DNA of 64,000 bases from Patescibacteria group bacterium (GCA_016861205.1 BOKX01000001.1:895835-959834); one strand, 5' to 3'. Counted from the first letter of the stretch, positions 20,481 through 62,200 are shown. The notes: a model not told the origin generated them from the letters alone. Translations and numbers: made by a program.

Positions 20481-23440
<2,960 letters not shown>

Positions 23441-23540
23441 TCAAGACTTGTTTGCTGCAAAAGTAACAAGTTTGACTTTTTCTTCACTGTTTTAGGAGCA
23501 GCTGCTCGGAATTCTTTCCGAGATCAGGTACTCAACTAAA

Positions 23541-42200: not shown

Positions 42201-43328
42201 ATGGCCAAGATCTCATTCCAGCTGAGTGTCCCAGGCGTGCTGGCTGATGTACCAGCGTTCGCCGGTTTTCTGCGGCACTATGTCCGGATGCGCGGTTATC
42301 GCTGGTTTTCCAAATTTGAGGTGTTTAAAGATGTGATCGTGGACTTGTTGTACAAGCAGCGCGGTCGCTATTCTCGACCATTTCTGCACTTTGGCACCAT
42401 TGGACTGGTCTTTTTTGTGATTACCTTTGGTCCATTGATCGTGTCGCAAACGAACGACGAGAAGCGGGCTGAAACACAGCGAACGATCGTAGCTGCCGCG
42501 AATGCCTACAACGAAAGCTTCACTACTACGCAAGCTGAAGGTGTTCGACAGTATCGTGGGGGTGAGATCATCACTCATGTGGTGAAAGAGGGGGAAACCT
42601 TGTCTTCAATCGCGCAACTTTACGGTTTGCAAGTGAGTACCATTGAGTGGGAGAACAACTTGACTAAGAACGCGAAGCTCAAGCCAGGCCAAGAGCTGCG
42701 TATTTTGCCGCTTGATGGTGTTCGTCACAAAGTAGCGCGAGGCGAAACTATTTACAGTATCGGTAAACGATACGGTTTGGATGAAACCCAAGTTCAGGTG
42801 ATCGTCGACTATCCTTTTAACGAGTTTTTGAATGACGAAACGTTCGAATTGGCCACTGGCCAGTATCTGATGGTGCCTGATGGTGTGAAGCCTGACGAAG
42901 CCACCACGCGACCTGTGGCTCGAGGTAACCTGAAGTTGACGCCTGATGCTGGTACCGTGACTGCGACTGGTTCATTTGTCTGGCCAGCGGCAGGGCGCAT
43001 TACTCAGGGCTATCGGTTCTATCATAAGGCTTTTGACATTGCCAACAGTGCCGGTGGTCCGATTTTGGCAGCTGACAGTGGTACGGTGATGGTAGCGGGT
43101 TGGCCAGATAACTCAGGTTATGCAAATCGGGTGGTCATCGACCACGGGAACGGTTACCAAACTCTGTACGCGCACTTGAGTGCCGTTCAAGTTACTGCGG
43201 GCCAACGCGTCAGCCGCGGATCAGTGATTGGCCAGATGGGCTGTACCGGTCGATGTACTGGTACACATTTACATTTTGAAGTTCGCCAGGGTGGGGTATT
43301 ACTTGATCCAGGATTGTTCTTGAAGTAA
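42201..43328 (+). CDS. Peptidoglycan hydrolase: TM anchor + two LysM domains + M23 (LytM-type) metallopeptidase
   Basis: LysM motifs HVVKEGETLSSIAQLYG... and HKVARGETIYSIGKRYG.... M23 motifs HxxxD (IDHGNGYQTLYAHLS) and HLHFEV. Confidence 0.85.
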   Translation: MAKISFQLSVPGVLADVPAFAGFLRHYVRMRGYRWFSKFEVFKDVIVDLLYKQRGRYSRPFLHFGTIGLVFFVITFGPLIVSQTNDEKRAETQRTIVAAANAYNESFTTTQAEGVRQYRGGEIITHVVKEGETLSSIAQLYGLQVSTIEWENNLTKNAKLKPGQELRILPLDGVRHKVARGETIYSIGKRYGLDETQVQVIVDYPFNEFLNDETFELATGQYLMVPDGVKPDEATTRPVARGNLKLTPDAGTVTATGSFVWPAAGRITQGYRFYHKAFDIANSAGGPILAADSGTVMVAGWPDNSGYANRVVIDHGNGYQTLYAHLSAVQVTAGQRVSRGSVIGQMGCTGRCTGTHLHFEVRQGGVLLDPGLFLK

Positions 43329-43335: not shown

Positions 43336-44508
43336 ATGTTGGATATTGTGAAGTTACTTATCAAAGCAGGTGCGGGTGGCGATGGCCGTGTTTCGTTCCG
43401 TCGTGAGAAGTTCGTACCCAAGGGTGGGCCAGATGGTGGACACGGTGGTGACGGTGGTTCGGTTTTCATTCGTGCTAAAACTGGTTTAACCACACTCGGT
43501 GAGTACATGGGTAAAAAGGAAATTGTGGCGCGAGCCGGCCAAATGGGTGGCAAGCGTCAGCGGACAGGTGCCCAGGCCGAGTCAATCACCATGGAAGTGC
43601 CTATTGGGACCACAGTCTGGTTGTTAGCCCAAAATCAGCCGCAACCGGCCCGCAAGTACCAAGTAATCAAGGCTGGTGAGCCCTATGAGGCTGCTGAACC
43701 CAGTCAATGGCTTGATGCCAATGGTGAGTTGCTTGAAGATGTAAACGAGGTTTTATTCCAACCACTCAAGAATACTAATGTTCGCGATATACCGAAACGC
43801 GAGCTAGTGCGATTGACCGAGGATGGTCAGACTATTGAGCTAGTCCATGGTGGTAAAGGTGGGCGAGGCAACGAATCGTTTAAAGGTCCAGCTTTGACCA
43901 CCCCGTTTATTGCCGAGTACGGAGTAGAGGGTGAAGCTAAGTGTGTCATTTTGGAGTTAAAGCTGCTCGCTGATGTTGGTTTGGTTGGTTTGCCGAACGC
44001 TGGCAAGAGTACATTACTGTCAGTTTTGACTAAAGCTCGGCCAAAGATTGCCGAGTACCCATTCACCACTTTAGAGCCGCATTTGGGCGTGTTGCGCCTG
44101 GGTCAGCAGGACGAAGTGCGTGAGTTAGTTTTGGCAGATATCCCGGGTTTGATTGAAGGGGCGAGTCAGGGTAAAGGGTTGGGGTTAGAGTTTTTGCGGC
44201 ACGTTGAAAACTGTCGGACCTTACTGATGGTGCTGTATGTCCCAGATACCTTTTTGACCGATCCCGATGGGGCTGCGGCCGCGGTCTGGGAGCAGTACCA
44301 AACGGTATCTCGAGAGTTGGCAGAGTACAGTCCTGAATTGGCTGAAAAGCGACGATTTTTGATCCTCAACAAGACAGATTTATACCAAAAGACCGTTTTG
44401 GATAGTGTAGTTTCACTTTTTAAACACAAAGGTGAGACTTTGATGCCACTCAGTGGGGCCACGCAACAAGGACTGGACGAACTGAAGGTGGTGCTGAGTC
44501 AGCCGTAG
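43336..44508 (+). CDS. obg: GTPase Obg/CgtA
   Basis: Obg fold N-terminus MLDIVKLLIKAGAGGDGRVSFRREKFVPKGGPDGGHGGDGGSVF. G-domain motifs GLPNAGKSTLL, DIPGLIEGA and NKTD. Confidence 0.9.
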   Translation: MLDIVKLLIKAGAGGDGRVSFRREKFVPKGGPDGGHGGDGGSVFIRAKTGLTTLGEYMGKKEIVARAGQMGGKRQRTGAQAESITMEVPIGTTVWLLAQNQPQPARKYQVIKAGEPYEAAEPSQWLDANGELLEDVNEVLFQPLKNTNVRDIPKRELVRLTEDGQTIELVHGGKGGRGNESFKGPALTTPFIAEYGVEGEAKCVILELKLLADVGLVGLPNAGKSTLLSVLTKARPKIAEYPFTTLEPHLGVLRLGQQDEVRELVLADIPGLIEGASQGKGLGLEFLRHVENCRTLLMVLYVPDTFLTDPDGAAAAVWEQYQTVSRELAEYSPELAEKRRFLILNKTDLYQKTVLDSVVSLFKHKGETLMPLSGATQQGLDELKVVLSQP

Positions 44509-44518: not shown

Positions 44519-46624
44519 TTAGCGAAGGTCAGAGTTTTGAAGTGGGGTGGTTTGGTCGACTGGAACTTGGTTGTTTCCTGGGTTGACGGTATCTTGCTGA
44601 TCAGCGTTAACAGTTTCATTCAAAATAGATAGATCATCAGTCAGGGCTGAACGACTTGCTTCTTGGTTGACTGGGTTGGGGGAAGCTGCCGGTCGAGTAC
44701 TGCTTGGCTTGGCAGATGCTGTAGCTTCAATAGCTGCAGTCAAACTTTGGATTTCAGCCATAATTTTTTCTCTATCGGGTGAGTCAGCTGGCATGATAGT
44801 CAACAGTTGCTCATAGACAGATTTAGCGTCAGCCAGTAGGTTCAGTTTTTGCAGCACGTTGCCTAGGTTGTAGTACGCGTTGGCATAGTCTGGCTTCAAC
44901 TGGATTGCCTGTTGGAAGAGGTTAACAGCTTGATTGTCCTGGTTTTGACTGTAAAACACGCCACCCAGTTCAAATCGCAGGTAAGGGTCGGTGGGGGCTA
45001 CTACAATGGCTTGAGTGTAGGCACTCACGGTCCATTGTTCGGCATCGTTAGCGACCCCGATCAACTGGCGGTAGATTTGAGCCAATACTTGCCAGTTCAC
45101 ACTGTCACCAGGATTAATGAAGGTCGCTGCCCGAGCTTCTCGGATGGCCTGTTGGATCAGTTGTGAGACTTGGGTTCGCTCATTTTCGGTGATGTCGGAC
45201 TTGTTAGCCAGCGCAGCAGCGATCTGGATATTGGTCTGAGCGTAGCGAGACCGATAGGAATCCATGTACGGGTTAAATTGGGTGGCTTTCTGCTGGTAGG
45301 TGTATGTCCGAACGGCATCGTTTTGTTGAGCAGCAATCAAGGCCTGCAAACTATAGTATGAGGCGATAGCTGCTCGAGTTATGCCGAAACCGCTGATGGC
45401 AACGATTAGAAGTCCAATACCGACCAAAACAGCTAAGCTGATCTGGTTTTGTCGGTGATGAGACTGCAAAGCTTGGTGATGATCAACAATACTAACGGTG
45501 AGAGCGTGAATCCGAGCTTCTCGCTCACGGCTGTTCGCGATGAAGGCAGCCAGCGCAACCGCCAACAGAGTAATGATGAGTGGGCTGGAAGGCCACAGGA
45601 TCAAACAGCCAATAGCCACCAAAGCTGCTGCCATGAATGGCCAGTGTTGGGGTGAGCTCTTGCGGCTGGTGCGAAACACCTGAACAGCGAACCAAACCCA
45701 AGTAGCTAAACCAAGTAAGCCGGTGGTGATCCACAAGGTTAGTGGGGTGTTGGTTCCTTGAATGAAGCGAACACCAGCCAAGGTTCCGGAGTTTAAGCTG
45801 GCTGGTTTGAACTGATTGAAAGCGACCTCAAAACTATCGGTGCCAACACCAATCAAAGCAGCTCGGGGGTTACGAAGAACATCAATGGCAATCGACCAGT
45901 TGGCGGCTAGTGGCAGGGTGACTGGTTGACCAGCTTGACCGGGCATGATTTGCCAGCCAGTGACCGCTAACCCCAAGATCATGACTACAGTACTGAGCAC
46001 TACCCACCAAGCAGTTGATTTGCGGGTGACGGCCCAAGTGACGACTGTTGCTAAGAAAACCAGTAAAGCTTCAAATGCGATCAAGGTAGAGCCAGCTAAG
46101 TTGAGCGCGGGATTGGACTCCAACTGGATTGGTAGGAAAAGGCTGAGGAACCGAGCTGGCAGACCCAAGCTAACTTGCGCTAACGTTGTGGCTGCCAAGA
46201 TGGTGCCGGCAGCTGCGAACGCCCACACTAATGACTGTGTCGATTTGGTTGAGAGCAGGGAGCCACCTAGTACTACTACTATTATGGCTGCTAAGTACAT
46301 ACCACCCATACCGAGTAAATTTTCCACTGGATAGACGCCGGTGAAGAAAATGGAGAGAATGACACTCACCCCAAACGCGAGTACCGCGGGAATGAGGGAG
46401 TTCAAGGTCAGGGAAATATACTTGCGATACCAGCTGGCTACCCAGAATAAAGCCATGATGATCAAGGCAGCAACACTCAAGAATATATTTTTGCTAGTCA
46501 GAAAAAAGTTGTCAAAAGCCGGTATGACGAGCACCGGCATAACGATGACGATTGCCATCATGATCGAGAGGGCAACTTGGCTAATCCAAGCAGAAGATTT
46601 AGACTCAGGAAGCATAGAAACCAT
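44519..46624 (-). CDS. O-antigen ligase (Wzy_C)/PglL-like polytopic membrane protein with C-terminal TPR repeats
   Basis: About 12 hydrophobic helices in the N-terminal 400 aa. C-terminal TPR units, e.g. AIQLKPDYANAYYNLGNVLQKLNLLADAKSVYEQLL. This architecture is common in Gram-positive and CPR genomes. Confidence 0.7.
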   Translation of the reverse strand: MVSMLPESKSSAWISQVALSIMMAIVIVMPVLVIPAFDNFFLTSKNIFLSVAALIIMALFWVASWYRKYISLTLNSLIPAVLAFGVSVILSIFFTGVYPVENLLGMGGMYLAAIIVVVLGGSLLSTKSTQSLVWAFAAAGTILAATTLAQVSLGLPARFLSLFLPIQLESNPALNLAGSTLIAFEALLVFLATVVTWAVTRKSTAWWVVLSTVVMILGLAVTGWQIMPGQAGQPVTLPLAANWSIAIDVLRNPRAALIGVGTDSFEVAFNQFKPASLNSGTLAGVRFIQGTNTPLTLWITTGLLGLATWVWFAVQVFRTSRKSSPQHWPFMAAALVAIGCLILWPSSPLIITLLAVALAAFIANSREREARIHALTVSIVDHHQALQSHHRQNQISLAVLVGIGLLIVAISGFGITRAAIASYYSLQALIAAQQNDAVRTYTYQQKATQFNPYMDSYRSRYAQTNIQIAAALANKSDITENERTQVSQLIQQAIREARAATFINPGDSVNWQVLAQIYRQLIGVANDAEQWTVSAYTQAIVVAPTDPYLRFELGGVFYSQNQDNQAVNLFQQAIQLKPDYANAYYNLGNVLQKLNLLADAKSVYEQLLTIMPADSPDREKIMAEIQSLTAAIEATASAKPSSTRPAASPNPVNQEASRSALTDDLSILNETVNADQQDTVNPGNNQVPVDQTTPLQNSDLR

Positions 46625-46679
46625 TAAACAACCTCAATGGGTTGTTGTAAAGCCATGAGTTCTTGTATAGCATAGTAGT

Positions 46680-47378
46680 ATGCAACCTCGTAAGGCAGTT
46701 AATCAAGCCGGTTTGACTATGATTGAACTGCTACTGGCTCTGGGAATTGTCTCAATTTTGCTCATCGCCGCTTATTTCCTGATGCAAACTCAGATGTCGC
46801 GTTCCCGCGACGCCCGACGCAAAGCTGATTTAGAGAAGATCAAAGTAGTTTTTGAAGACTACTACAATGACAACACGTGTTATCCACCTGCCGATGTTTT
46901 GTTGAACTGCAATGCCAACACCTTAAACCCGTATTTAGATAAAGTGCCTTGTGATCCAACGGGGGAGCCGTATCTCTACCAACCAGAGGCAGATCGTTGT
47001 GCCGGCTATCGTATTTACGCGCGAATTGAAGAACCAGATGATGAAAATGTCGTTGATCTAGGCTGTGATGGAGCAAATGGCTGCGGAATTGGGGCGGGCT
47101 TTGAAGCCTACAACTACGGAGTTTCTTCGGGTGTTCCGGTGACTACACAGGCAGCTGGTGGGTCCAATCCCACCCCTTCGCCAAGTGGCGGTGGCGCTTC
47201 ACCTTCGCCGACCTCTGGGGTCTATGTCTGTGTTCCTGTGTGTAACGTCGCTACTCAAGATTATGCAGATAACTGTGAAGTCACGTTTACCAACTCAAAT
47301 TGTGACAATGCCTGTGGCTCATCTGCCAACTGGTGTGAGTACGCGATCAGCGGCGGAGCCGGGGGCGGGGGTGGCTGA
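46680..47378 (+). CDS. Type IV pilin-like protein 1 (prepilin leader, Cys-rich, S/T/P-rich segment)
   Basis: Class III signal MQPRKAVNQAG|LTMIELLLALGIVSILLIAAYF with Glu at +5. Ser/Pro/Thr-rich tract GSNPTPSPSGGGASPSPTSG. Eight Cys residues near the C-terminus. Confidence 0.8.
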   Translation: MQPRKAVNQAGLTMIELLLALGIVSILLIAAYFLMQTQMSRSRDARRKADLEKIKVVFEDYYNDNTCYPPADVLLNCNANTLNPYLDKVPCDPTGEPYLYQPEADRCAGYRIYARIEEPDDENVVDLGCDGANGCGIGAGFEAYNYGVSSGVPVTTQAAGGSNPTPSPSGGGASPSPTSGVYVCVPVCNVATQDYADNCEVTFTNSNCDNACGSSANWCEYAISGGAGGGGG

Positions 47379-47950
47379 TGAAAATCGCAGGCAAAAAATA
47401 CTCTTATCGCACCTTAGATACAACTTACTCAAGACAAAGTGGTTTCACTTTGATCGAAATTCTAGTGGTGATGGTGATCATTGGTATTCTGGCTACCCTG
47501 GGGGTAGGGAGCTTCCAAACTTCACAGCAGAAATCGCGCGATGCGCGGAGAAAATCTGATTTGCGACAAATTGGTTTGGCCCTCGAGGCCTACTACAATG
47601 ATTACGGACAGTATCCGCTGAGTACCGCTGACAATCGCATCAACGGGTGTGCGGGTGGGGCTTGTACTTGGGGAGAGCAGTTTGCTGATGCTAATGGTAC
47701 GGTGTATATGGTCCAGTTGCCTGAGGATCCCAAAACCACCTTTACCTACTATTACTATGCCCCAAGTCCAACTGAGTATCAGCTCTACGCTCGGCTAGAG
47801 AACAACTTGGATCAGAGTGTTCCGACCGATGCTCAAAACAATCCGCAAGTCTATCAGAACCTCGACTGTGGGGCGTATACTTGTAACTACGGGACTTCCA
47901 GTGTTAATACTACCCCCGCCACTGGCCAGACCTTAGTGGACGATACGTAA
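47378..47950 (+). CDS. Type IV pilin-like protein 2
   Basis: Prepilin signal ...SRQSG|FTLIEILVVMVIIGILATLGVGSF, then ...QKSRDARRKSDLRQIGLALEAYYNDYGQYP (pilin alpha1-beta loop pattern). Its start overlaps the previous stop as ATGA. Confidence 0.8.
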   Translation: MKIAGKKYSYRTLDTTYSRQSGFTLIEILVVMVIIGILATLGVGSFQTSQQKSRDARRKSDLRQIGLALEAYYNDYGQYPLSTADNRINGCAGGACTWGEQFADANGTVYMVQLPEDPKTTFTYYYYAPSPTEYQLYARLENNLDQSVPTDAQNNPQVYQNLDCGAYTCNYGTSSVNTTPATGQTLVDDT

Positions 47951-47951
47951 T

Positions 47952-48455
47952 ATGATCAAGTCCTACCTACCTCAACCCAGTTTAGTTCGTCGCCAGGCGG
48001 GTTTTACCCTGATCGAGATCTTGGTGGTTATTTCAGTGATCGGTATTTTGGCAGGTTTGTTGTTGACGAACTTTGTCGGTGTTCGCGAGCGGGCAGCAGA
48101 TACCAGCCATAAGAATGACTTGCGTCAGCTCAAAACCGCGCTGCGTCTCTACTACAATGACGTAGGAAGTTATCCTGATGCCGGAGCTGGAGCCACCATT
48201 CAAGGTTGTGGTAGCCCTGCCGGCACATCTGTATGTGCTGATGCTTTCTCATCAGGTACAACTGTTTACATGAATGAGTTGCCGGCTGACTTTGCTTACT
48301 ACAGTGATGGCATTGATAGCTTTTTGCTAGTGACTACTCTGGCGAACGCATCTGATGAAGACATTACTGCCAGCGTGAACCGCTGCGACCCAGCTAGTCG
48401 CGGATATTTCGGTCAGACGATTGGTCCGACGGACTACTTTGTGTGTGAAGACTAG
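47952..48455 (+). CDS. Type IV pilin-like protein 3
   Basis: Prepilin signal ...RRQAG|FTLIEILVVISVIGILAGLLLTNF, then ...HKNDLRQLKTALRLYYND. Confidence 0.8.
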   Translation: MIKSYLPQPSLVRRQAGFTLIEILVVISVIGILAGLLLTNFVGVRERAADTSHKNDLRQLKTALRLYYNDVGSYPDAGAGATIQGCGSPAGTSVCADAFSSGTTVYMNELPADFAYYSDGIDSFLLVTTLANASDEDITASVNRCDPASRGYFGQTIGPTDYFVCED

Positions 48456-49320
48456 GTTCAGGTGAGTTGGCATTCGCAAATGCGGCTTGCAGTGCTTCGA
48501 TATTCGGTCGGTAGACAGCAATTCGCCCGCCTCCAATTTGCTCTATCTCATCATACTCGCCACCCAGTTCATATCGTCTGGCCACATCGCCAATAGTGCC
48601 TGCCATCAGTTGTGAGCGACCGAACTTGTTGGCTGTGATTGGTTGGAGTTGGCCTGTTTCCTCATCCGTAGCAATTTCTCGCACCGTGGCTGAATGAATG
48701 AGTTGTCCAGAGCCGTCATAAAAAAGCACGACATCGCCAACAGCTATGTGTGTGGGGTCGACCACATTTTCGCCAAAACCCGCTTCAAATGAATCAGTTT
48801 CTGTTACCAACTCAGAAAATTGGATAACTAGTGAGTCGACACCAGCCTCGAGCCAAGAATTGCGATCGCCCCCGAAAGAAACTCCGGCGCGTTTTTCCAA
48901 CAGCTGGAGGGTGTAGCTGTGGCAGTTAAAGTTCGGGTTGGCCAGGTCTGACAAATACTGCATTGTTTCGGCTGGCGGATTGTTGATTTGTTCGTCAGCG
49001 TAACGGCGGACATCCATGTTGTAGACGTAAAAGCTGAGGTCGATCTCGATGGTCTCACCATCGGTGGTGTGACAGGTGATCGTTGTGTTCTTGGAGGCTG
49101 CATCGAAAGACATGGCGATATCACACACCAGTTGGTCGAGATCTTGAGCGTCGGTGACCCCGTGGGGGAAGAGGAGGCCCAAGGCCACTAGAATGGTGAG
49201 TAGAGCTTGCTTGCGGTAGGCGAGAAACTCAGTGGTTTTTTGAGTTAGCTCAGACCAGTTGATCTGCACCAAAGCTTGCGACTCAGTTGGCTGAAGTTCG
49301 GGGACTGGTTTTTCAGACAT
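48394..49320 (-). CDS. Hypothetical membrane-anchored protein (308 aa)
   Basis: N-terminal TM helix ALLTILVALGLLFPHG. Its 3' end overlaps the 3' end of pilin gene 3 by 62 bp (convergent overlap). Confidence 0.5.
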   Translation of the reverse strand: MSEKPVPELQPTESQALVQINWSELTQKTTEFLAYRKQALLTILVALGLLFPHGVTDAQDLDQLVCDIAMSFDAASKNTTITCHTTDGETIEIDLSFYVYNMDVRRYADEQINNPPAETMQYLSDLANPNFNCHSYTLQLLEKRAGVSFGGDRNSWLEAGVDSLVIQFSELVTETDSFEAGFGENVVDPTHIAVGDVVLFYDGSGQLIHSATVREIATDEETGQLQPITANKFGRSQLMAGTIGDVARRYELGGEYDEIEQIGGGRIAVYRPNIEALQAAFANANSPEPSLHTQSSPSDQSSDRNIRD

Positions 49321-49394: not shown

Positions 49395-50132
49395 TTAAGG
49401 AATCAGGTGGCCTTCGCAAGTGTTGCCGTTTGCATCAGAGTTAGTGCCATCAGGGCAAGTGGTATTTGACCAAATGGGGTTCTCACGATTGGCTGTATTG
49501 ACATTGAGAGCCCCCGTTAAATTGGCGTTCGTAAAGTTGGTTTCAATTAAGGCGGTGTTGAAAAGGTTGGTGCCCTGTAAGTTTGCGCCGGTGAAGTTGA
49601 CTTGCTGAAGTCCCGAGTTTCTGAAACTGGCGCCAGCCACGTTTGCTCCGGTGAAGTTTGAGCCACTAAGGCCGCTATTTTTTAGTCTGGCCTCTGTCAA
49701 GTTGGCCCCGGAAAAGTTGACATTGTCCATATTATTGCTATTGATAACAGCTTTGATCAGACTCGCTCCACTAAAATCAGCATTCCTCAAGTCACTAGTT
49801 GCAACGTGGAGTGAGTCCAGGTTTACTCCAACAAATGAGCTAACATTGGCACGGCTTAACAAATCTTCCACCTCACAAGCAACGCAAATGAGAGTGCTCG
49901 TGCCAGAACTGGGGAAGTCTTTTGGCCAGCTCAAGAGAGTTTCTTGGTGCCGGCACTCTGTATCTGGTGGCACAATCCGAATGTTGGGTGCGTTAAAAAT
50001 GGTGGGGCGAACACAGGCGTAGATCCGATTTGACTCAACACCCTGAGCGTGGACAACAGCGACGGCAGCTGGTAACAAAAGCCCGCCTAAAAAAGCGGCG
50101 CTGGTGAGGAAGAGAGTTTTGGGAGTGAACAT
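49395..50132 (-). CDS. Secreted pentapeptide-repeat protein
   Basis: Signal peptide MFTPKTLFLTSAAFLGGLLLPAAVAVVHAQG. About 20 consecutive A(D/N)LxG-type pentapeptide units (NADFSGASLIKAVINSNNMDNVNFSGANLTEARLKNSGLSGSNFTGANVAGASF...). Confidence 0.8.
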   Translation of the reverse strand: MFTPKTLFLTSAAFLGGLLLPAAVAVVHAQGVESNRIYACVRPTIFNAPNIRIVPPDTECRHQETLLSWPKDFPSSGTSTLICVACEVEDLLSRANVSSFVGVNLDSLHVATSDLRNADFSGASLIKAVINSNNMDNVNFSGANLTEARLKNSGLSGSNFTGANVAGASFRNSGLQQVNFTGANLQGTNLFNTALIETNFTNANLTGALNVNTANRENPIWSNTTCPDGTNSDANGNTCEGHLIP

Positions 50133-50202: not shown

Positions 50203-53200
50203 TTAGTTCAGTAGCCACCAGGTGAACTGGACGTCTCGGTCGGGCAGGGCGGTGTCAAAGCCGACCACGAACTGACCTTCTTTTTCAGAGGTGCTTGGGT
50301 TTTCAGGAGTGATTGACTTGACGTACAGGACTTGGTTGTTGGTTGAGCCGAGTGGGGTGACCTGGACGACTGTTTCACTGGTGATTTGCTCAGACTTGAT
50401 GACCATTTCGGTCTGGCCTTGTTTGACGACAGCCTTACCTGAGGTCTTGGTGGTTTCGGCTTGGTTCTCGTTACCACTCAAGTCTTGGGCGCCGACCCCG
50501 ATACCGCCAGCGAAGTTGGCGCGGCCGTCGGCTGAGATGGTGGCGACTGGGGTGCCAAGCTCGTCGACGATCTCGAAGCGTGACTCACGGACTTCGCCAG
50601 ACTCGGTGGCTACGCCAGCGACTTTGACTTGCAATGGGTTGGTGAAGTCAGTGGGTTGGATCAGATCAGTTAGGAGGCTGTCCTCAACAGTCACGGTACC
50701 AGCCACGGTTAGGTCACCCGTCACGATGACTTGGCCGTTTGACTTCAAGCTAAGTAAGCCAGCCATCATCGACAGCGTACCTTGGCCATGAGGTTGAATT
50801 TCAAACACGGTCTCGGCTGGGTTAGCAGAGTCTAAGTAGCTCAAGACACCATCGCTCAGCTGGGTACCTTCACCGATCAGCAGTTGGTTGGCAATGCCCA
50901 CTGAGTCACCGAAGTAGGCAGAGCCGTTGACCTCGAAGTAGCGGTTGATGAAGGCAGCATCGGCACCGATTGAGACGTCAGTGCTGGCTAAGTTGAGGTC
51001 GCTGAGTGACTTGTTCATGATGGCAGAGCCAGTGGCCGAGTAGCCAGCTTGGTCGATGACTGAGAATAGGGAGGCGACTGAGGCAGCGGTGGAAGCGTTA
51101 TCAGGTTCGCCGAGCAGTTGAGCCAACAGAGACGGTTTCTGAATGGCGGTGGCCACTTTGTCGTCAAAGCCGTCAATGTTGTCGGCGTACAAAGTGCCAG
51201 AGATGGTGGCGGTGATCAACTCAGCGGTGTCCGCCTTGATCTGTTCGAACTCAGCCACTTTGCCCTCAAGTGCAGCGATACGAGCTGAGGTGGCGTCGAG
51301 TTGACCGGAGATAGTAGCGGTACCACTGATACTGGCATTGTCACTCAAGAGTGAGCCTAGGCGAGAGGTGCCGTTGACAGTCAAGTCGCCCGCCAGCTGG
51401 GTGTTGCCTTGGTCGTCGATGCTGGCCACTGGTTGGTTGTTTTGGTTAGTGACCTGGAAGCGGTCATTGTTGTCACTCAGTTTGACGTTAACAGTGTCGC
51501 CAACTGGAGTGATGAGGTCAGTTTTAACCTCTGGAGTTTGGATGCGGACCTCAGCCAAGAGCTGGCGAGTGCGAATCACGCCGGCTTTTAGGTTGGCCAC
51601 GGCTAGTTCAGCAAAAGCATCAACTTTCTCGAGCAGATTGCCGTTGTAGCTGGCATTGTAGGTGGCGGTGGCCACAGGAGCGGAGTCATTGCCAGCGATA
51701 GTTACGTCACCGCTCGAAGTAATCCGGATGCTTGGGTCGAAGTAGGAGGTGTTAACAAACACCATGACTTTTCCGGTGCCGGCCTGTGGTTCGGGCAGAG
51801 GTTGACGCTCTGATGAACCAGCTAACCGATCCTGCTCAACTTTAAGTGTTCCAGCTGAGAGTTTATGGGTGCCATCATAAGCTTCAAGGGCATAGCCGAT
51901 AATTCGGCCGGCCTTGGTAGCTTTCATGGCCACACCTGGTTGACTGGCAGAGGTTAATGGATCGCCAACGGCAATTGGGCCATTTTCTAGACTGACCTTG
52001 ACTGGCACGCGTCCAACCAAGGCCACTGGTTGAGTATCAACCACTTCGCCGCCCTCAGTATCGCCCCATCCCGCTACTAATCCTGGGTCAGTGGAAATGA
52101 CGCCTACTACCATGCTGTCATAACTGACGCCTGAGCTCTTGCTTAGGGTTTTTCCAGGTTCAGCAACAGGTGCTGTGGTAATGGCTACCAAGTCACCCTC
52201 TTCAGCGTTGCCCAAAACTTTGTACATTTCGGCTACGTCAGCACCGCCACCGTTCCAGGCTCCATCAGCGTAAGCCTGACCATTGGTTTCAAGACGATAT
52301 TCATTGTCTGGGGTGCCGTCTTCGTCAGTTCGCAGTAGCATAAAGTACTCGTTCGCGGTGCCCACATCGTTGGTTGACCAAGCTGACATAACCTCAAATG
52401 TGCTAAGCAAGTGCGATCCAACACTGGTGCCCGTCGCCCCGAACGGTGTGCCACCTTCACTGGTTACCCACAATCGTGTTCCACCACCTTGAGTGGTGCC
52501 GATAGCCACCGAGCCATTGTTCCTGACTGACATGACGTGGCGGCCACTAACGCCTGCCCGGAAGATATCGCCACTACCATTGTTTTCAACTCGCAAGCCG
52601 ACACCACTGGTTGAGCCTGAGAAGGTGGCAATTGGTAGTGATGAGGAGTAACCACGAACATCAACAGCTCCCAGCAGATTAGCATTTGGGGTGTTAACAC
52701 CCATGCCACCACTGTTGGTGAGGACAAAGCGGGTGGTACCTGAGGCTGAGGCAGTAAACAGGTCACCATTAGACTCGGTTTGGTTAATGGTCAAGACAGC
52801 CTTGCCGAAGGCAGGGGTGTCGCCACCAGTTTGGAGGTGGAGTAAACCTAAGTATGATCGACTGTCACCGAGGATAGTCCGATTTGTGACCCCATCAATA
52901 TGGAGAGCGTAGGAACCGTTGGAGCCGGGGTCACTCAGGTAGTAGTTATTGAGGATAAACTCATCAGCGCCACTATCAGCTGAAATTTGCCATAAGTTAC
53001 CTAGCTCAGTTGCTCCATCATTGTGACTAAAGATGATGTTTGAGGCACCACCGTCAACTGAACTCATCTGGAACTCAGCGTACGGATCGCCACCAGCGAA
53101 GGATCGGAACATCATGGTGGCTCGAGTAGAAGCTCTCTCAAAGTGGAGTCCGTAGGCAGGGGCGGTAGTGCCGATACCCAGGTCACCGTTACCGAGCAAA

Positions 53201-56200
53201 GTCAGATCGGCCGCGTTGTCATTGTTGCGAACTTGGAAGACAGTTTCGGCGGCGGCCAAATCAACTACCCCGGTGCCCGATCGGCGGGCGCCAGTTAGCA
53301 TAATCATCGGTACAGTGTCTGTGGGGTTGGTAGAGCCAGAGTAGCCGCGCAGTTCGAGTGCCTGTGCGCCAGAGACTTGGTCAGCAAACCCAGTTAACAT
53401 GGCTCCACCGTTGGTGCCAGAGATTGCCCCGATGTGGAAGATGGTGTTCGTGGTGGTCACGCCAGTGATGCCGTGCGCCACATCAGCATCACCCATGGCA
53501 AAGGTGGTGTCACCCGAAGTGGTGACCAAGTGCAAGTTGTAGGTCGGGGCAGTAGTGTTGATGCCAACTCGACCGACGCCGTTAAGCGGGTTGAGATAGA
53601 TGTTGCCGGTAGTGGCGCCGCCAATGGTTATAGGTCGGCTACTTGTCGATCGAATGGTACCCCCAGATCCACCTAGAGTGATGTCACCAGAAATAGAAGC
53701 TGTTGGAAAACCACCACTGACGTTATTTAGGAAGGCAAAGTTAGCACTGTCAGTGGCTAAGCCACCAACTAGGAGGTCGAGCGTGTTGTTGGTGGGACTC
53801 AGTGCGCCCTGATACAGTCGCCAGTAGGCACCCAGCGAAGTTTCTGGGTTGGCCCAGGTGAGGGTGCCTGAACCGTTCGTCTGGAGAATGTAGCCAGCTG
53901 TTTGTGATGTTGGCCAGGTGTAGGCTAAGTTGCCAAAGACCGTCGTGCCATCTACTTCCAAGTCACCTTGAATGTAGAGATCATTGTCAGTGCTCATACT
54001 GCCGGAGGCACCAGCCGTTGAATCAGCCATCAGGTTGTAGTTCACCGTACTGCCATTACCGCCGATGTTCAAAATCGCATCAGCACCGAAGATGGCATCG
54101 CCAGCAATGTTAAGAGCGGTGCCAGTAGCAGCTGGGTCGAGATAGAAGGCTTCGTTAGCCATATCAGAAAAGCGCTGAGCGATGGCGTACCCATTAGTGT
54201 CAACTCGGAAGCGTGTCACGCCAGAAACTGAGGCTGACAGAATGTCGCCTGAGTTGAGCTGGTCGATGACCAGGGCCGCATTGGAGCTGTAGTTGCCAAC
54301 CACATGGAGATCTGCGTGGGGAGCGGTGGTGCCGATCCCGACGTTGCCATCTGAGTTAATATGAAGTCGGTCAATCCCACTAGTCATGAGGGCAACATCT
54401 GTCCATGAACCATGAGCTGCAAAACGGGCAGTGGTTCCCGAGAAATCAACTGTTTGTGCACCGCCGAGTCGGAAATCGGTGGAAGCGTTGACATATCCAT
54501 TGCCAGTAATGTTGCCGACGACTTGCAGCGCCTGGCTTGGACTCGTCGTCCCAATCCCGACGTTGCCACTGGGGAGAATGGTCATCGCGGTCGTCCCATC
54601 AGACACAAAACTCAGATTACCGGTGTTGGCGTCACCGAGTGTCAGAGTGCGCTGGTTGGTGGTGGCAATCACCCCAGCTGAGTTGAGCGTAATATTGCCC
54701 GAGATACTGGCAGTAGGTGTACCTGAGTTGACATTGATGAAGGCAAAGTCAGCGCTGCTCGAGGCGCTCCCGCCGATGAGCAGATCAGTGGTGTCGTTAG
54801 CGGGAGAGAAGGCACCATCAATGATTCGCCAGTAGTTAACAGCTTGAGAGGTGGAAGCGATGCCCACCCAGGTACTGCCATTATAGTAGTAGGGAATGTT
54901 GTCACCCGTGTTGTAGTACATCGAGCCGGCACCAAGTGCAGTCGGGTTTGAGCCAAAGTTGCCGATGCGTGTCTGGCCTGCAATCGAGACGTTTTGACTA
55001 AAGTTAAAGTAATCACTGGTCGTGTTGTAGCTCATGATGCCCTCATCACCGCTTGAGCCGATGTGGAGGCTACTGGGGCCAAGGTACAGATCTTGCCAGC
55101 GTAAGGTGTCGCTGCCCAAGTCGCGAGTGTCATTCCCATCGGGCAAGAGGTTGCCCACAATTTCCACGGTGCCAGCGGTCAGGCTAAGGGTGCCATCGAC
55201 ATCGTTGTCGATAGTTTCGCCGTTTTGGAATGAGATGTCGGTAGTGACGTCAGCGTCGGCGATGTTGATAGCGTTGACGATGCCACCGGAGATGTTACCG
55301 CTGTTGGTAATGTATATGGCATTTTGCACGACCGTTGAGCCTGTGCCTGAGGTATCTTGGTTGTCGAGTCGGAGAAGCGCAGTGACGTTGTTGTCGGTGG
55401 TGTTAGAAGTACCCATGTTTCTGACTTGAAGAGCGTACTCGGTGTTTCCAGAAGTTGATGGATTGTTGGTTAATCGGACATCAACCCCGGCCAGGTCCGT
55501 CGTGCCGCTACTGTTGCTGTTGGTAACGTTGAAAATGTTGGCAGTTATGCCGCCAGTCCCAGCTGGGTTATAGGTGGATGAAAAGTACGAGGCAATTCCG
55601 GTGGTCATAGTGTTGGAAATTACAGAGTAGCCAATTCCAGCTGTACCTGTGTACTCCTGTTGCCAGGGGTAACTTCCTTGACTCAGCAAGAATTGATTAT
55701 CAAGCGTGGGACTGTCAACGAACTCGGTGAAATCAATACAGTCGGTACAGCTGAAGTCGCTGGCGGTGACGGTAGCATTGGTAAAGTTGACCACAGTGCC
55801 ATCAGCTTCGAGGTTGCCCTCGATGTACAGGTCGTCGTCACTGTCCATACTGGCCGAAGCGCCGGCAGTTGAGTCGCCGATCACGTTGTAAGCCACGTCT
55901 GAGCCTGAGCCACCGACGTTGAAGGTGTTGGTATCGGTAAAGATCAGGTCGCCGCCACCGATATTGAGGGTCAGGTCACCAGTGGTGGTTTGGAGGGTGC
56001 TGGCTTGATAGAGAACTAGATTGCCGGCGTTACTTAAGCTCAGTCGTCGTGTGCCAGAAGCAGAAGCAGCCAGGATATCGTCAGAGCCAGTTTGATTGAA
56101 CATGGCTAGGGCGTTGCCAGCGGCATTTGCCGTGCCAGTGACGACAAATCTGCCCAGAGGTGCAGTGGTACCAAAACCAACGTTACCACCTCTAGTCATA

Positions 56201-59200
56201 GCCATGTAGTTGCCGGCGGTGGTGCCAGTATTCAAAAATGTACCAAACGTGACGTAGGCGTTACCGCCCCCAGAGTTGTTACCGCCTTGAATGCCAGCAG
56301 ACAACATATTCCCTTGACCGTCGCCGCCGCCAGCCCTGATTAAGAATGGACTACTTGGACCGCCACTGTTGGCCCAGATGCCGCCATTGACGGTCAAAGT
56401 GTCATTGATATTGCCGGAGGTAGTGTTGATACCGACCCGACCACCAGTTGGGTTGAGGACCAGTGTCCGGTTGAGGCTGGTCGTAATTACACCATCTCCA
56501 GTCAGTGACAAGGCGTTGCCCGCCGTGGTGCCAGACATACTGGCGGTGACGTTGCCAGAGCCGTTGATGTTGGTCACGGCAAACCGGGCGCTGGCAGTGG
56601 ACTGGCCCCCGATTAACAGATCCACAGTCGAGTTAGCCGGGTAGAGGGCGCCGTTGCCTTGGTACCAGAACACATTGGCTAGAGTGGCCACTGTGGTCCA
56701 GCTTAGGACACCTGAGCCATCGGTGCTCAACACCTGGCCAGTGCTACCAGCGGTGTCTGGTAAGGTCAGTGTGACATCTGACCCGACCGTCGCGGGAGCC
56801 TGCAGTGCCACGTAGTTGGTGGAGTCGGAGTCAGCTAGGCGGAGGTCGCTCTGAGCTGGCAAGAAAACGTTGTCGTTTAGGTCAATCTGAGTTGAGTTGG
56901 AGCTCAAGCGCAAGTTACCACTCACATCTTCAATGACGTGGGCGACGCTGTCGATAACTGAAATAATTCCGCTGCTGTTGATCTGGAACTGTGAAGTGCT
57001 ACCCACTGAGAAAAGTGAGTCTGGAGTGGTATCTCCACCCACGCCCACGTTGCCAGCACCAGTGATGGTCATGCGGTTGTTAGCGCCGTTGGTGTAGAAG
57101 TTGATAGCCGCGTTCTGGCGGTTGGCAAAACCGATTTCTGAACCGTTAGAAGTTCCAAAGTCAGCAGTAGGTGTTCCAGAAGTATCAGTAAACTGAATGG
57201 CGCCACCAGCGCTACCTGCGATTACAAGTGACGTATAGTCACTGCCACCGGTAGAACGCAGCCACAGCCGACTCACTTGACTTGCACCACCCCAACCCGT
57301 TGCAACGTTGGTTGGAGCAGTGGTGCCGATACCGACGTTATTCAAGTTGCGGTCAAAGGTCATGATGTTACTCTCAGAACCACCAGTTACCCCTTGAACG
57401 TACAAGCGGCCAGATGAAGCATCTTCTAAGTTGAAAGAGTAGCCAGCATCACTATTTTGCTGTTTTAGGTACAAAAGCTGTGTGTTGCTGCTGACGCCAT
57501 CAGCATCCACAATGGTCAGCACTCGGTTAGAAGAGGTAGTTCCAATGCCGATGTTGCCATCTGGACGCATGGTCATCAAATGGGTGCCATCTGAGTAGAA
57601 GTTAATGTTTCCGGTGTTGCTATCACCAATATTGAGTGGTTGCTGATTAGTAGTAGCAATGACACCGGCAGAGTTAAGGGTGAGATTACCAGAGATACTG
57701 GCGGTGGGAGTGCCACTATTCAGATTGATAAAGGCAATATCTGCGCTGGCACTGGACTGACCACCAAAGAGGACATCGACAGTTGAGTTGGCTGGGTAGA
57801 GAGCACCATTGCCTTGGTACCAGAAGATGCTGGATAGCGTGGCAGCGCTGGTCCAGCTCAGGACACCTGATCCATCAGTGGACAACACTTGGCCACTGTC
57901 GCCATCAGTATCTGGCAAGGTGAGGGTGTAGTTGGTGCCGATGGTGGCGGGGGCTTGAATCGCGGCGTAGTTGGAAGAGTCGCTATCGCCAAAGCGCATG
58001 TTACCTTGAGTGTTGATGAAGATGTTTCCACCAGCAATCTGCAATCGTTCGTTAATAGTAGTAGTACCAATACCGATGTTCTGCGAACTGTTAATGCGCA
58101 TGGCGGTGGTGCCGTTGGTGGCAAAGCCCATGGCGTCGATGTCGTGCATGTAGCTGATGACACCCATGTCTTCGCTATCTTGGTCTGAAAAGCTTAGGAT
58201 TTGGTGAGCGGTGTTGCCACTGACCCACTTGAGGCGATTGGTGCTAAAGGCCTCGAGTACCAACATGTCGTTGCCATCCAGTGAGTAGCCGCGGGTGCTG
58301 CTGCTGCGGTAGAGGTGGGCAAAGCCCTCTGGGGCGGTGGTCCCGACCGCGATCCGGCCACCTGAGCCGTTGTTGGGCATCATGATGATGTTACCGGTGG
58401 TGGAGCCGCCGAGGGTGAGAGAGCGATTGTTGGTGGACTGGATGGCGCCACTGGTGTGGTTGAGCGTCAGGCTACCGGCGATCGAAGCGGTGGGGGTGCC
58501 TGAGTTGTTATTCAAGAAAGCAAAGTTGGCACTAGCCGAAGCCTGACCACCGAAGAAGACGTCCACGGTTGAGTTCAGTGGGAAGAGCGAACCATTGGTT
58601 TGGTTCCAGTAGTTGGTGCCGGCGGCTACCCACGAGAGGACGCCAGAGCCGTCGGTAGACAGAACTTGCCCACTGTCACCGTCATTGTCAGGCAACGTGA
58701 GGGTGTAGTTGGTTCCGATCGTGGCCGGAGCCTGGATAGCAGCGTAGTTGGTAGAGTCGGAGTCGGCTAGGCGGAGGTCGCCCTGGGCGTTGATCTGGAA
58801 GTTACCGGTAGCAAGTTCGAGGGCGTTGGTAGGAGTAATAGTGCCGATTCCGAGATAGCCATTTTCATCAAAGGCGCTTAAACCAGTGCCACTCGAGTTT
58901 TGCAGTTCAAGTAAGTTATTAGTCTGTGACGTAGCAGCTCTGATTTTTACCGCAATTTCATTGGCTGTTTGGTTAAAAACTGCAAAAAGATGATCTGTTT
59001 CAGTACTGATGGTACCGACATTGACGGAGTCTCGTGCGTTACCGTAAATCGTGAAGAGATTGTCGGTTGATCCGCCATCAGCACGGAGAATGGTGAAAGT
59101 GTCAGAAGCTCCGATGTTGTCTGGGTTCAGCCAGATTCCTGGTGCTCCAGCACCACCTAATGCAACCAAGCGTGCGTTAACACCACTGGTTCTGTTTCCA

Positions 59201-62200
59201 TATAGGCTGGTTGTTTGATTACTAATTGACAGTTTATCGGTCACACCCGCATCACCACCTGGACTCGTCCGAATCACAAATGATTCTCCGTTCAAAATAT
59301 TGATTGTTGGGTCAGTTGTCCCTCGGAAGGAAAGTGTGCCCGAGAGTGATGCTGAGCCAGCTACGTCAAGTGTGGCCGTGGCATTGGTACTATCAAATCC
59401 TGGCCCGATGCCCCAGTTACCAGCCGAACTCACAGCACCAATCACACTGTTGTTCAGAGCAAAGAAAATCTGACGGCCACTAGCAGCATTGAGGTACGTG
59501 CTCCCGACATTCGATTGCAGCAGGGCGTAATTACCAGTGGCTGAGTGATCTAGTGCCTGGTTGCCAAAGTAGGCATAGTCAGTGTTGGCTGGCCAGGCAC
59601 CGGTTTCGGCAGCTCCAATTCGACCGGTGGTAGTGATGCTGCCAACGGCAAAGTCAAAGTCAGGGCTGGAGGTGCCGATACCCACTCGGCCACCGGTGGC
59701 ATTCAGGGTGAGTGTTCGGTTAAGGCTGGTTTGAATGGCGCCGTCGCCATTGAGTGACAGAGCATACCCGGCGGTGGTCCCAGACATAGTGGCAGTGACT
59801 GCGCCAGAGTTGACGTTAGTCACCGCGAACCGGGCGCTGGCGGTAGATTGACCACCGATGAGCAGATCCAGAGTTGAGTTCACCGGGTAGAGCGCACCAT
59901 TACCAGTGGACCACAAGCTGTTACCGATGGTAGTGCCGTAGATTTCATTAATGGCATCTACGAGGCCTTGGGGCAAACCGGCATCCAGAGCGGTGTCAGC
60001 TACAGTCAGAGCGATGTTGCCGGTGCGGGTGTCGCTCAGATACAGCTCTCCGTTGCTGCTCAAAACCAAGTTGCCAGAGGAGTTAGCTAAGGCGTGGGCC
60101 ACGCCACCAATGGCGGCGATGTTTCCAGAGGAGTTAACCTGGAACAGATCGCCATTGCCGACGGTCAGCATGGCTGCAGGTGAAGTGTCTCCGATACCGA
60201 AGTTGTTGTTGAAGAGTGTAGCCAGTGTGGCATTTCCAACTTGGAAACCAATTGAGCTGGCAGCGGCTGTATCAAGCACGAGTGAACCAGAACTGAGCAA
60301 CTCAACAGAACCGGAACCTGTATTCTGGATAGTCAGTTCACCAGCTGAAGTGTCAAAGTAGGCGTTGCCCACGACGTGGAGTGTTTGCCCAGGCACGGTG
60401 GTACCCAAACCCAACAGACCAGCGTTGGTCAAGACCATTCGGTTTGTACCAGAGGCAGAGGCGGCGATGATGTTGCCAGAATTGGTCTGGTCAACCACCA
60501 GGGCAGCGTTGGAACCGTAGTTACCGACTACATGGAGATCTGCGATGGGTGAAGTGGTACCGATGCCAAGATTTCCGTTACTATCGAGAGTCATGAAGGC
60601 AGTACTTGATTGTCGGAAGACAAGCCTTCCGCCACCGTATGAGCTAGCATTACCAGTTGAGTACAAATTAAAACTAGTTCCGCCGGCGCCAGTATTTGAA
60701 AGGCCAACCATCGGTAGAATAGATGAAATCTCCAGCTGATAAGCTGGAGTCGTGCTGCCAATTCCGACATTACCTGTTGGCAAAAGTGACATGACCTCAG
60801 TTGCAGGGAAACCTTGGTTGTATCGATTAGCATAGCTGTATGAGCCAATAGCTAATCGTGAAGCCGTATCGGTGAAACCTAGTACAGCTCCGCTGGTGCC
60901 TGTCCAAAGATTCACAAACCTACTGGCGTCGGTTCTTTCAAAAACGAAACCTGGTGTGCCAGTCCCGGCAGTGACTCTGACTGGGAAGGCAGGAGAGCCG
61001 GAAGGTGCTGCTGATGGACCAACAACATCAAAAAGAGTGGCAGGAATCGAAGTCCCAATCCCCACATTCCCATTCTGGGTAATCACAAACCGGTTTAAGC
61101 CTGAGCTGGAGGCGGTGAAGATGTCACCCACACCTGAGTTATCGGCTACCAAGGTGGCAAAGGCGGTAGCACCAGAGACAGAAGCAACCGGCAGCGTCCC
61201 AGACATGGCCCTCAGGTCTAAGGTGCCTCTGGGACTAGTTACGCCATTTTCACCAATTCCTACCAATCCAGCTCCAGTAATGGTTACTCGTGAGAGCGCG
61301 TTGGTAGCCAAAGTTAGGGGAGTGTTTTCTCGGTTATAAACCAAGGCACCACCATTGTATCCGAGAGTCAGCCCATCGTTTTCGCTATGTCCAGTGGCGC
61401 TTGAAGTGATACTGATGTACGCCAAAGCACTATTTTGTGCAGAAACTTGAAGTTTCGAGCGAGGACTAGTTGTGCCAATTCCCACATTGCCATCGTTTGG
61501 ATTAAGGAGCAACGAGCGACTTAAGCTTGTGGCGATAGTACCATCACCAGTCAGGTATAAGCTGTTCCCAGCTGTTGAACCCGAAAAACTAGCCGTTGGG
61601 GTGCCGCTATTTACATTCAAGAACTTGAAGATGGCACTGGCACTCGACTGGCCGCCAATCAAGACATCCATGGTTGAGTTCTTGGGATAAATGACACCGT
61701 CACTGGCTGACCAGTGCACGCTGCCAGCACCAGCCAAAGCTGGATCTACCCAGCTTAAGGTGCCACTGCCATTTGTAGACAAAATATACCCAGAGGCTTG
61801 GGAGCCGGGCCAAGTGTAGGTGATGCCATTGAAAGCGGTGGTCCCAGTGGCAAAGTCAAAGTTGCCGCTAGATGAGATGGTCAGCCGATTGTTGCTGCCG
61901 CCGGTTCGGAAGATTAAGGAGCCAGTGGCGTTGGTAGCAGAAACGTAGTTCTCAGCGTTTCGTGAGAAGGCCAGGGTATTGGCTTGGAGCGTGGAGTTGT
62001 AAGCAGCTGCCTGAGTGACAGTCAGAGCCCCGTCACTGCCAAAGTAGGCCAGGTTGGTACCACTGCTGTTGTTGATGTCAGCGATGTGGGCAGTGCCACT
62101 CGGGCCACCCTGAACAGTCAGTGGCACGCCGCCGGCGTAGGTGGCTGAGATGGTGGCACCTGGAGAATAGACGTAATCTCGAGAGATCACCCCACCGATA

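Follow-up and report, generated by a model that had tools for sequence, protein, structure and literature searches.

The closest described relatives of the gene reported here encode the O-antigen ligase WaaL and the pilin-modifying O-oligosaccharyltransferases PglL, PilO (TfpO), PglS and TfpM. Three residues important for Escherichia coli WaaL, R215, R288 and H338, are conserved in PglL as R224, R298 and H349, and PglL-specific residues have been described in addition (Q178, N180, H400, E404 and P406); a gene position next to pilin genes, found for 21 of 31 pglL homologues, is a recognized signature of pglL-type O-oligosaccharyltransferases (PMC3643930). In WaaL 7TPG the corresponding residues are R191 and R265, which bind the phosphates of undecaprenyl diphosphate, and H313, which activates the acceptor (PMC10920833). 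Here we examine a stretch of 64,000 nucleotides from a Patescibacteria group bacterium (GCA_016861205.1, BOKX01000001.1:895835-959834; hereafter the window), in which a gene for a 701-aa protein with transmembrane (TM) helices and tetratricopeptide repeats (TPRs), termed the TM-TPR protein, lies divergently next to three prepilin genes.

In glycosyltransferase (GT) families that use sugar diphospholipids, all conserved residues face outward. The position of the catalytic His is occupied by Asp or Glu in other families of the clan and has apparently been relocated in GT127, for which a Glu was proposed, and the families of Wzy-type polymerases (BP-Pol) have one or two conserved Arg residues, some of which align with those of the O-antigen ligases (O-Lig). 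The expansion of this enzyme class in CAZy does not mention TPR fusions (PMC10920833). In the body of literature searched, no paper was found that combines bacteria of the candidate phyla radiation (CPR), O-antigen ligase and pili. New here are a large CPR-wide family inside a known superfamily, its altered set of conserved residues, its fusion to TPRs and its pilin and adhesin context. Host attachment in CPR/Patescibacteria relies on pili and large surface proteins, and a candidate gene and candidate acceptor sites are now at hand.

Kinship of the TM-TPR protein to the O-antigen-ligase superfamily

The TM-TPR gene occupies positions 44519..46624 on the minus strand. AlphaFold2 (AF2) modeled the full-length protein with a predicted local distance difference test score (pLDDT) of 90.4 and a predicted template modeling score (pTM) of 0.88, and residues 1-445 alone (the TM-only model) with a pLDDT of 87.3; both models have 11 transmembrane helices. 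The membrane domain (residues 1-420; 45365..46624, minus strand) has its N terminus inside and its C terminus outside, and its long outer loop (residues 226-292; 45749..45949, minus strand), the counterpart of the WaaL periplasmic loop, holds family-conserved residues. The TPR domain (residues ~435-640; 44705..45322, minus strand) is recognized by Pfam TPR_11 (PF13414, E 1e-14), by further TPR models and by TPR matches in the PDB, and it is placed outside the cytoplasm by the topology derived from WaaL homology, the charge distribution and the 11th helix. The Ser/Pro/Asn/Gln-rich C-terminal tail (residues ~650-701; 44522..44677, minus strand) has a pLDDT of <50 (residues 652-700) and is probably disordered. 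The ORF list, Pfam and AF2 thus confirm a 701-aa polytopic protein with TPRs, divergent from three consecutive prepilin genes, at the position where the original prediction had placed it.

As a genuine though distant branch, the membrane domain belongs to the O-antigen-ligase/Wzy_C superfamily, which has a GT-C-B fold. A TPR-free profile built from divergent family members was searched against 5.8 billion proteins and retrieved, beyond the family itself, 17 proteins at E 2.7e-13 to 8e-4, all of which (17/17) carry PF04932 (Wzy_C). Alignment of the family with an alignment of these Wzy_C proteins by hhalign gave 99.0% probability and E 4.8e-18 over 346 columns (residues 12-362), a value that is somewhat circular, as the template had been picked by the family profile; this circularity affects neither the database-wide E-values nor the fold search. 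Based on the TM-only model, Foldseek returned one significant PDB match, WaaL 7TPG chain B (7tpg_B), at E 1.7e-4, probability 1.0 and 13% identity, with a TM-score of 0.47/0.51 and a root-mean-square deviation (rmsd) of 7.6 A; the next match was at E 0.08.

Other routes to the superfamily returned TPR proteins or nothing. Foldseek with the full-length model found TPR proteins only, a PDB sequence-profile search with the full alignment was swamped by TPR matches, and a TM-only profile had no match among PDB sequences. PF04932 is precomputed in 0 of ~40 full-length homologues, and a Pfam scan of 41 distant members, which sought a bridge to Wzy_C, gave TPR families only, with PF04932 outside the top 25 families. 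Membership in the O-antigen-ligase family, as originally predicted, is therefore upheld at the level of the superfamily, at which profile, hhalign and fold point to common ancestry, and not at the curated thresholds of the Wzy_C and NCBIfam ligase models.

The TM-TPR family is very large, Patescibacteria-wide and labeled in databases only as a TPR repeat protein. The ~40 full-length homologues share 27-41% identity with the window protein and bear the public label "tetratricopeptide repeat protein". An exhaustive profile search gave 4,430 cluster representatives (50% identity) at E<=1e-3, 451 of them reaching E<=1e-30, and nearly all of those listed are ~700 aa long. Named relatives are labeled Patescibacteria, Woesebacteria, Paceibacterota or Zambryskibacteria only. 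In the TPR part there are sub-threshold NCBIfam matches to PgaA and PrsT, which are polysaccharide-export TPR proteins, and to PilW, Tgl and TadD-like proteins. We did not take the PilW, Tgl and TadD-like matches as a sign of pilus function; they are weak, those to PilW and Tgl lying far below cutoff, and were regarded as generic TPR similarity.

By comparison with the PglL/PilO(TfpO)/PglS/TfpM enzymes, the TM-TPR protein is likewise polytopic, belongs to the same superfamily, has its conserved residues on the outer face and is encoded beside type IV pilin genes. It differs in that it falls below the Pfam Wzy_C threshold, lacks the shared Arg/Arg/His and has an extra 11th helix as well as an extracytoplasmic TPR domain of ~200 residues; moreover, its family occurs in monoderm CPR bacteria. 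With WaaL (CAZy GT121; 7TPG) it shares the order of helices, the long outer loop over the 346 profile columns and the G-x-G, (H)N and G..G motifs, whereas WaaL has 12 helices and no TPR, and its R191, R265 and H313 (7TPG numbering) have no counterparts in the TM-TPR family. The acceptor of WaaL is lipid A-core, which is not expected in CPR bacteria.

Two of the 17 retrieved Wzy_C proteins are canonical Wzy_C+TPR fusions from Bipolaricaulota (P0222 and P0223) annotated as "O-antigen ligase family protein". They have the same domain architecture and length (~706 aa) but keep R/R/H, pass the Pfam Wzy_C threshold and lie at ~E 1e-3 from the family profile. The Wzy-type polymerases and SEDS proteins (GT119, GT122-135) are of the same GT-C-B-type clan, in which divergence is extreme and the catalytic residue may be His, Asp or Glu or may have moved elsewhere (GT127). 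These families keep one or two Arg residues and, GT127 apart, an acid at the His position, whereas the TM-TPR family has Ser, Thr or Ala there and no aligned Arg, and it is not among the GT119/GT122-135 families described (PMC10920833). A parallel in design exists in another GT-C subclass. The eukaryotic proteins TMTC1-4, like further GT-C enzymes that have TPRs in the lumen, are polytopic lipid-linked-sugar transferases with a noncytoplasmic TPR domain that chooses protein acceptors; they are of the GT-C-A type and use dolichyl phosphate mannose as donor. Neither a sequence match nor a fold match to them was seen for the TM-TPR protein.

Linkage of the TM-TPR gene to a three-pilin cassette

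The three neighbors are genuine class III prepilins. Pilin 1 (232 aa; 46680..47378, plus strand), pilin 2 (190 aa; 47378..47950, plus strand) and pilin 3 (167 aa; 47952..48455, plus strand) all score above the Pfam gathering score for N_methyl (PF07963) and above the NCBIfam cutoff for TIGR02532, and they carry the signals G|LTMIE (pilin 1, residue 11), G|FTLIE (pilin 2, residue 22) and G|FTLIE (pilin 3, residue 17), so that the canonical G|(F/L)T(L/M)IE signals originally predicted are present in all of them. Their best equivalog likeness is to GspG, below threshold. The stop codon of pilin 1 overlaps the start of pilin 2 (ATGA), and pilin 3 begins 1 nt after pilin 2; the three ORFs therefore look like one operon, divergent from the TM-TPR gene across a 55-bp intergenic region (46625..46679). 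In this region we found no sigma-70-like site, and a promoter and terminator scan of the module gave nothing above shuffled expectation. A 7-bp perfect inverted repeat (AACAACC-N6-GGTTGTT; 46627-46633 and 46640-46646), short enough to occur by chance, is separated from the downstream TM-TPR start codon by 3 nt.

For the comparison of gene context we sampled 4 genome loci and 60 metagenome loci, all scanned for pilins by one rule (a regular expression and a hidden Markov model [HMM] built from its matches). Loci had been retrieved with clade-specific peptide patterns from a tighter sub-alignment, which biases the sample toward one clade. There were 65 nonredundant loci, of which 24 had at least 2.5 kb on both sides and 16 had flanks of at least 4 kb. 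The three-pilin cassette was present in 12 of the 24 loci with full flanks and in 19 loci in all, upstream and divergent in 8, immediately upstream and co-directional in 7, and downstream and convergent in 4. All cassettes with enough flank consist of three genes, ordered pilin 1-2-3. We counted 50 prepilin ORFs, forming the 19 cassettes, within 3.5 kb of the TM-TPR gene (299 kb scanned), compared with 0 in 171 kb of distal flank (P about 2e-4 if the 19 cassettes are taken as independent, an overoptimistic assumption for related loci). In the 64-kb window, the pilin HMM found only the three pilins at 46680-48455.

Homologues at 35-41% identity have the same block of a giant protein gene, three pilin genes, a divergent TM-TPR gene, Obg, M23/LysM and Rho. 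The cassette is also present at 28-30% protein identity; cassette-bearing loci include a Paceibacterota genome at 29% identity and a locus at 30% identity in which the cassette is convergent and downstream (L008). In a reverse test that started from pilin-1 homologues (37-51% identity), 4/4 loci had a divergent gene for a 674-712-aa TPR protein together with Obg, M23/LysM, Rho and the gene of a giant protein; these loci share the arrangement of the window and are not phylogenetically independent. The comparative context thus shows that the TM-TPR gene is coupled to a three-prepilin operon and usually to the gene of a giant lectin-domain surface protein. In the window, the giant surface protein is 4,477 aa long and encoded at 50203..63636 on the minus strand, in the same orientation as the TM-TPR gene; in most related loci a giant ORF flanks the module, usually of the Laminin_G_3/DUF2341 lectin type. 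The pilin linkage is real but partial, conserved and nonobligatory, as is the common but not obligatory position of PglL/PilO-type genes beside a pilin gene. The PglL/PilO likeness of the original prediction thus stands as regards pilin adjacency, which recurs in three arrangements; as regards the shared signature residues it fails, and their absence is part of what that prediction had named as speaking against it.

Pilin 1 consists of a GspG-like head, a Ser/Pro/Thr linker and a Cys-rich C-terminal module with 12 Cys. Its Ser/Pro/Thr tract, GSNPTPSPSGGGASPSPTSG, occupies residues 161-180 (nt 47160-47219), as had been noted originally; among orthologues, however, the feature is frequent rather than universal, given that of 19 scored pilin-1 sequences only 8 have such a tract (>=13/20 Ser/Thr/Pro) between head and Cys module. 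These orthologues are ~190-250 aa long with typically 12-14 Cys, and 79 pilin-1 homologues were found altogether. At one locus (L004) the Ser/Thr/Pro tract is on pilin 2 instead of pilin 1. Enzymes of the PglL type modify Ser/Thr/Pro low-complexity stretches or Ser-rich C termini, as are present in the neighboring pilins here (PMC3643930).

Pilin 2 ends in a conserved motif, CNY[GC]-x-[SA]-S-x-N, which is present in 18 of 20 orthologues just after the last Cys and is followed by a short tail; in the window it reads CNYGTSSVNTT (nt 47882-47914). Enzymes of the PilO/TfpO and TfpM types attach glycans to pilins at a C-terminal Ser/Thr beside the disulphide loop. By this analogy the pilin-2 motif is a candidate glycosylation site; it may be a modification or an interaction site and could equally be structural. 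In many cases an N-x-S/T-like triplet comes after the motif, with a tail that closes on ...LV(T/A/D)E (window, L002, L014, L023, L042, L043 and L075-L077). Pilin 3 has a conserved ...YFVCED C terminus. We also considered whether the cassette is the "locus one" of TM7x and ruled this out; the descriptions of pilin loci in TM7x include assembly machinery but no gene for a TPR protein or ligase.

Possible roles of the TM-TPR protein

We tentatively put forward, as the favored among several possible roles, that a lipid-linked glycan is transferred by the TM-TPR protein, through a rebuilt active site, to the cassette pilins and to surface proteins. The TPR domain would hold the protein acceptor, and the glycan would be moved en bloc to the cassette pilins and probably also to further proteins of the surface, among them the giant adhesin, making the protein a general O-glycosylation enzyme. 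Candidate acceptor sites would be the pilin-1 Ser/Pro/Thr linker and the pilin-2 C-terminal CNYG-x-SS-x-N tail. Such catalysis would need a rebuilt site, as the family lacks the catalytic His of WaaL/PglL and both of their phosphate-binding Arg; we infer that K45, R/K251 and R/K254 might serve the diphosphate and that D248 or E101 might act as the base, by analogy with the relocated Glu of GT127. It is somewhat unlikely that the family is either a new CPR-specific GT-C-B-type glycosyltransferase family outside CAZy GT119-135 (PMC10920833) with a rebuilt active site, responsible by means of its outward-facing TPR domain for general O-glycosylation of the host-attachment pili and giant adhesins of ultra-small episymbionts, or else a pseudo-enzyme that assembles a tip complex of the three pilins and the giant adhesin.

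The pattern of conserved residues bears directly on this proposal. R235, R296, G314, G316, H340 and G351 are invariant in the Wzy_C relatives, and with E. coli K-12 WaaL added to the alignment, R235, R296 and H340 map exactly onto WaaL R215, R288 and H338. The H338 column corresponds to family residue 291, which is Thr in the window protein and Ser (19), Thr (8), Ala (6), Phe (3), Ile (3), Arg (1), Pro (1) or Asn (1) among 43 sequences, with His, Asp or Glu in 0/43. Kept from the ligase alignment are the Gly-x-Gly (G259/G261), the Asn beside the His (N292) and the G..G (G302/G305). The family has conserved residues of its own, namely K45 (42/43), D248 (37 Asp and 3 Glu), R/K251 (40/43), R/K254 (35/43) and N278 (43/43), and further W243, W283, F287 and Q289 in the outer loop of residues 226-292. 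Based on WaaL homology and charge distribution, all conserved polar residues map to outer loops. The near-invariance of K45, D248 and N278 suggests that the site is functional and that the domain is more than a scaffold. While the aligned O-Lig positions are neither Arg nor acidic in this family, K45, R/K251, R/K254, D248 and E101 elsewhere on the outer face could substitute.

A number of results weigh against glycan transfer to pilins by this protein. PF04932 matched neither the full 701-aa protein (E<=0.01) nor its membrane domain (E<=10), NCBIfam gave sub-threshold TPR matches only and no ligase model, and at a TM-score of about 0.5 and an rmsd of 7.6 A the modeled fold match to WaaL is moderate. 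At the position of WaaL R288, family position 239, 0/43 sequences have Arg, and the R215 "SRG" motif of WaaL falls in a gap of the profile-profile alignment, so that the residues that define WaaL and PglL are absent from the TM-TPR family. Judged by these aligned positions, the TM-TPR protein is not a canonical PglL/PilO-type O-oligosaccharyltransferase. Loss of the triad argues against membership in the WaaL/PglL group and does not thereby prove inactivity. It calls for caution in transferring the labels "O-antigen ligase" or "PglL-like" from fold alone, and it makes the family a useful case for catalytic-site drift in the clan.

The gene context adds further points on the same side. Twelve of the 24 well-flanked loci have no pilins, and the four loci of the reverse test, as stated above, are related. 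Clustering of neighboring ORFs gave a LysM+M23 peptidase in 31 of 65 loci, Rho in 19, pilins in 19 and Obg in 15, and at the loci with flanks of at least 4 kb, M23 in 12/16, a giant ORF in 10/16 and pilins in 9/16. M23/LysM, Rho and Obg are as frequent as pilins among the neighbors or more so, and part of the adjacency is therefore plain housekeeping or lineage synteny. Genes of a glycan-donor pathway (initiating phosphoglycosyltransferase, flippase) were not found in the 64-kb window. PilB/PilC/PilD/PilM machinery, for which the original prediction had suggested a genome search, was not found in the search of the 64-kb window and the flanks of related loci and may lie elsewhere in the genome. 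Pilin glycosylation in CPR bacteria has been predicted and in no case demonstrated; the experimental study of Saccharibacteria pili predicted it computationally and named no enzyme (PMC11623550).

The envelope itself might be a different target. The TM-TPR protein might polymerize or attach a lipid-linked wall or capsule-like glycan on the outer face, much as Wzy or a ligase would on a monoderm wall, with the TPR domain as a scaffold toward peptidoglycan or export partners and the pilins as neighbors via gene order only, which we consider unlikely. M23/LysM is the most constant neighbor, by the counts given above, and remains adjacent at two loci in which it is upstream in the same orientation (L047 and L056); in the window, the LysM+M23 peptidoglycan peptidase gene (42201..43328, plus strand) is convergent to the TM-TPR gene, beyond Obg (43336-44508), which lies between the two. 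A Paceibacterota member lies beside MurJ, without pilins, the near-universal family size of 4,430 cluster representatives suggests a housekeeping envelope role, and half of the loci have no pilins at all. Two or three Lys/Arg and aromatic residues without a His loosely resemble retaining polymerase families (PMC10920833), and the TPR domain weakly matches PgaA and PrsT, below cutoffs. However, an envelope enzyme leaves unexplained why the cassette is adjacent in three arrangements, with zero pilins elsewhere in the flanks and with 4/4 loci in the reverse test; Obg and Rho in the same block mark that side as housekeeping synteny and not necessarily as function, and the Args expected at the O-Lig Arg positions in polymerase families are missing too.

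The loss of all three canonical catalytic residues would fit an inactive ligase descendant that serves as a membrane platform, with the TPR domain as a hub that chaperones, docks or stabilizes the three minor-pilin-like proteins and the giant adhesin in a tip or priming complex comparable to that of minor pilins and PilY1. TPRs are protein-interaction modules, the TM and TPR parts are in a fixed arrangement in the model (pTM 0.88), and TPR proteins are known as pilus-biogenesis factors, though the PilW/Tgl matches here are far below cutoff; moreover, the cassette is an orphan set of three nonidentical pilins beside a giant adhesin-like protein, with no assembly ATPase or platform gene nearby. 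Such a platform is nevertheless distinctly unlikely, given that the (near-)invariant outer-loop residues K45, D248, N278 and N292 and the kept Gly motifs look like a maintained ligand-binding or active site, that GT127 shows that catalytic residues can relocate within the clan, and that half of the loci lack pilins. That the adjacency of TM-TPR and pilin genes is nothing but the inherited gene order of one CPR lineage is very improbable. Most pilin-bearing loci do share the block Rho-M23-Obg-TMTPR-pilins-giant, and the sampled loci are interrelated and were retrieved with clade-specific peptide patterns, but the cassette is kept in divergent, co-directional and convergent arrangements at 28-30% identity across named lineages, and in the co-directional loci it directly precedes the TM-TPR gene on one strand, as would be compatible with an operon.

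Other genes of the window and of related loci

In a Woesebacteria member, giant Laminin_G_3/DUF2341 proteins are the sole neighbors on either side. In one clade (L068, 8895-15061; L058, 9158-14692), the genes directly downstream of the TM-TPR gene encode a GT2, a hexapeptide acyltransferase, two unannotated ~480-510-aa proteins and a PMT_2-type GT-C transferase, a set that could be a separate glycosylation system based on lipid-monophosphate sugars. At another locus, GT4 and sulfotransferase genes are nearby; both contexts count in favor of glycan transfer, as do the Wzy_C+TPR fusions described above. The original prediction had also pointed to an RfaE-II-like gene of the window (11588-12094) as a source of activated sugar. 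Its best named match is TIGR02199 at 85.6 bits versus a cutoff of 181.5, its fold is that of cytidylyl/adenylyltransferases in general (PF01467, E 1.8e-7), and its distance from the module is 33 kb; we rejected it as evidence for sugar-donor supply.

In the giant ORF of the window, Pfam recognizes a single domain, an N-terminal SAM-like one of the phage-integrase type (residues ~94-167). Precomputed Pfam assignments for the giant ORF in L004/L005 also include a weak C-terminal Peptidase_S74 (tail-spike chaperone), an odd mix for a surface protein. Other lineages instead have a Laminin_G_3/DUF2341 lectin-type protein at this position. Between the giant and TM-TPR genes, some loci have an extra ORF of ~300-450 aa (L018, 6776-7909; L008, 4806-5936; similar in L013, L029, L032 and L036), which in L018 encodes a stand-alone TPR protein and in L008 has no Pfam match. 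In the window, two genes separate the pilins from the giant ORF. One, for a 308-aa protein without a family match (48394-49320, minus strand), shares 62 nt with the end of pilin 3; the other (49395-50132, minus strand) encodes a pentapeptide-repeat protein of 245 aa whose N terminus is hydrophobic and resembles a signal peptide; neither is in a recurrent neighbor cluster of the related loci. An IS200-like (Y1_Tnp) transposase gene lies directly beside the TM-TPR gene in seven loci (L039, 8888-9766, and six others; cluster c233) and might contribute to rearrangements.

Farther from the module, the window contains a gene for an ATPase like the coupling proteins of type IV secretion systems (TrwB/TraG-D; 37028-39112, minus strand), a sortase gene (39668-40537, plus strand) and a gene for a 992-aa DUF4012 protein (127-3105, plus strand); a coupling-protein-like gene and a sortase recur beyond Rho in L002, L010, L011 and L014. 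A tRNA, 23S rRNA (20499-23423) and 5S rRNA (23550-23666) lie at 20196-23666 (plus strand), with no 16S rRNA in the window, and the rRNA operon is thus apparently unlinked. Two very large ORFs other than that of the giant surface protein encode a protein of 1,446 aa with no Pfam match (14282-18622, plus strand) and a protein of 1,626 aa that matches CarboxypepD_reg only (24024-28904, minus strand). Genes for giant proteins of the putative surface type are unusually numerous in the window.

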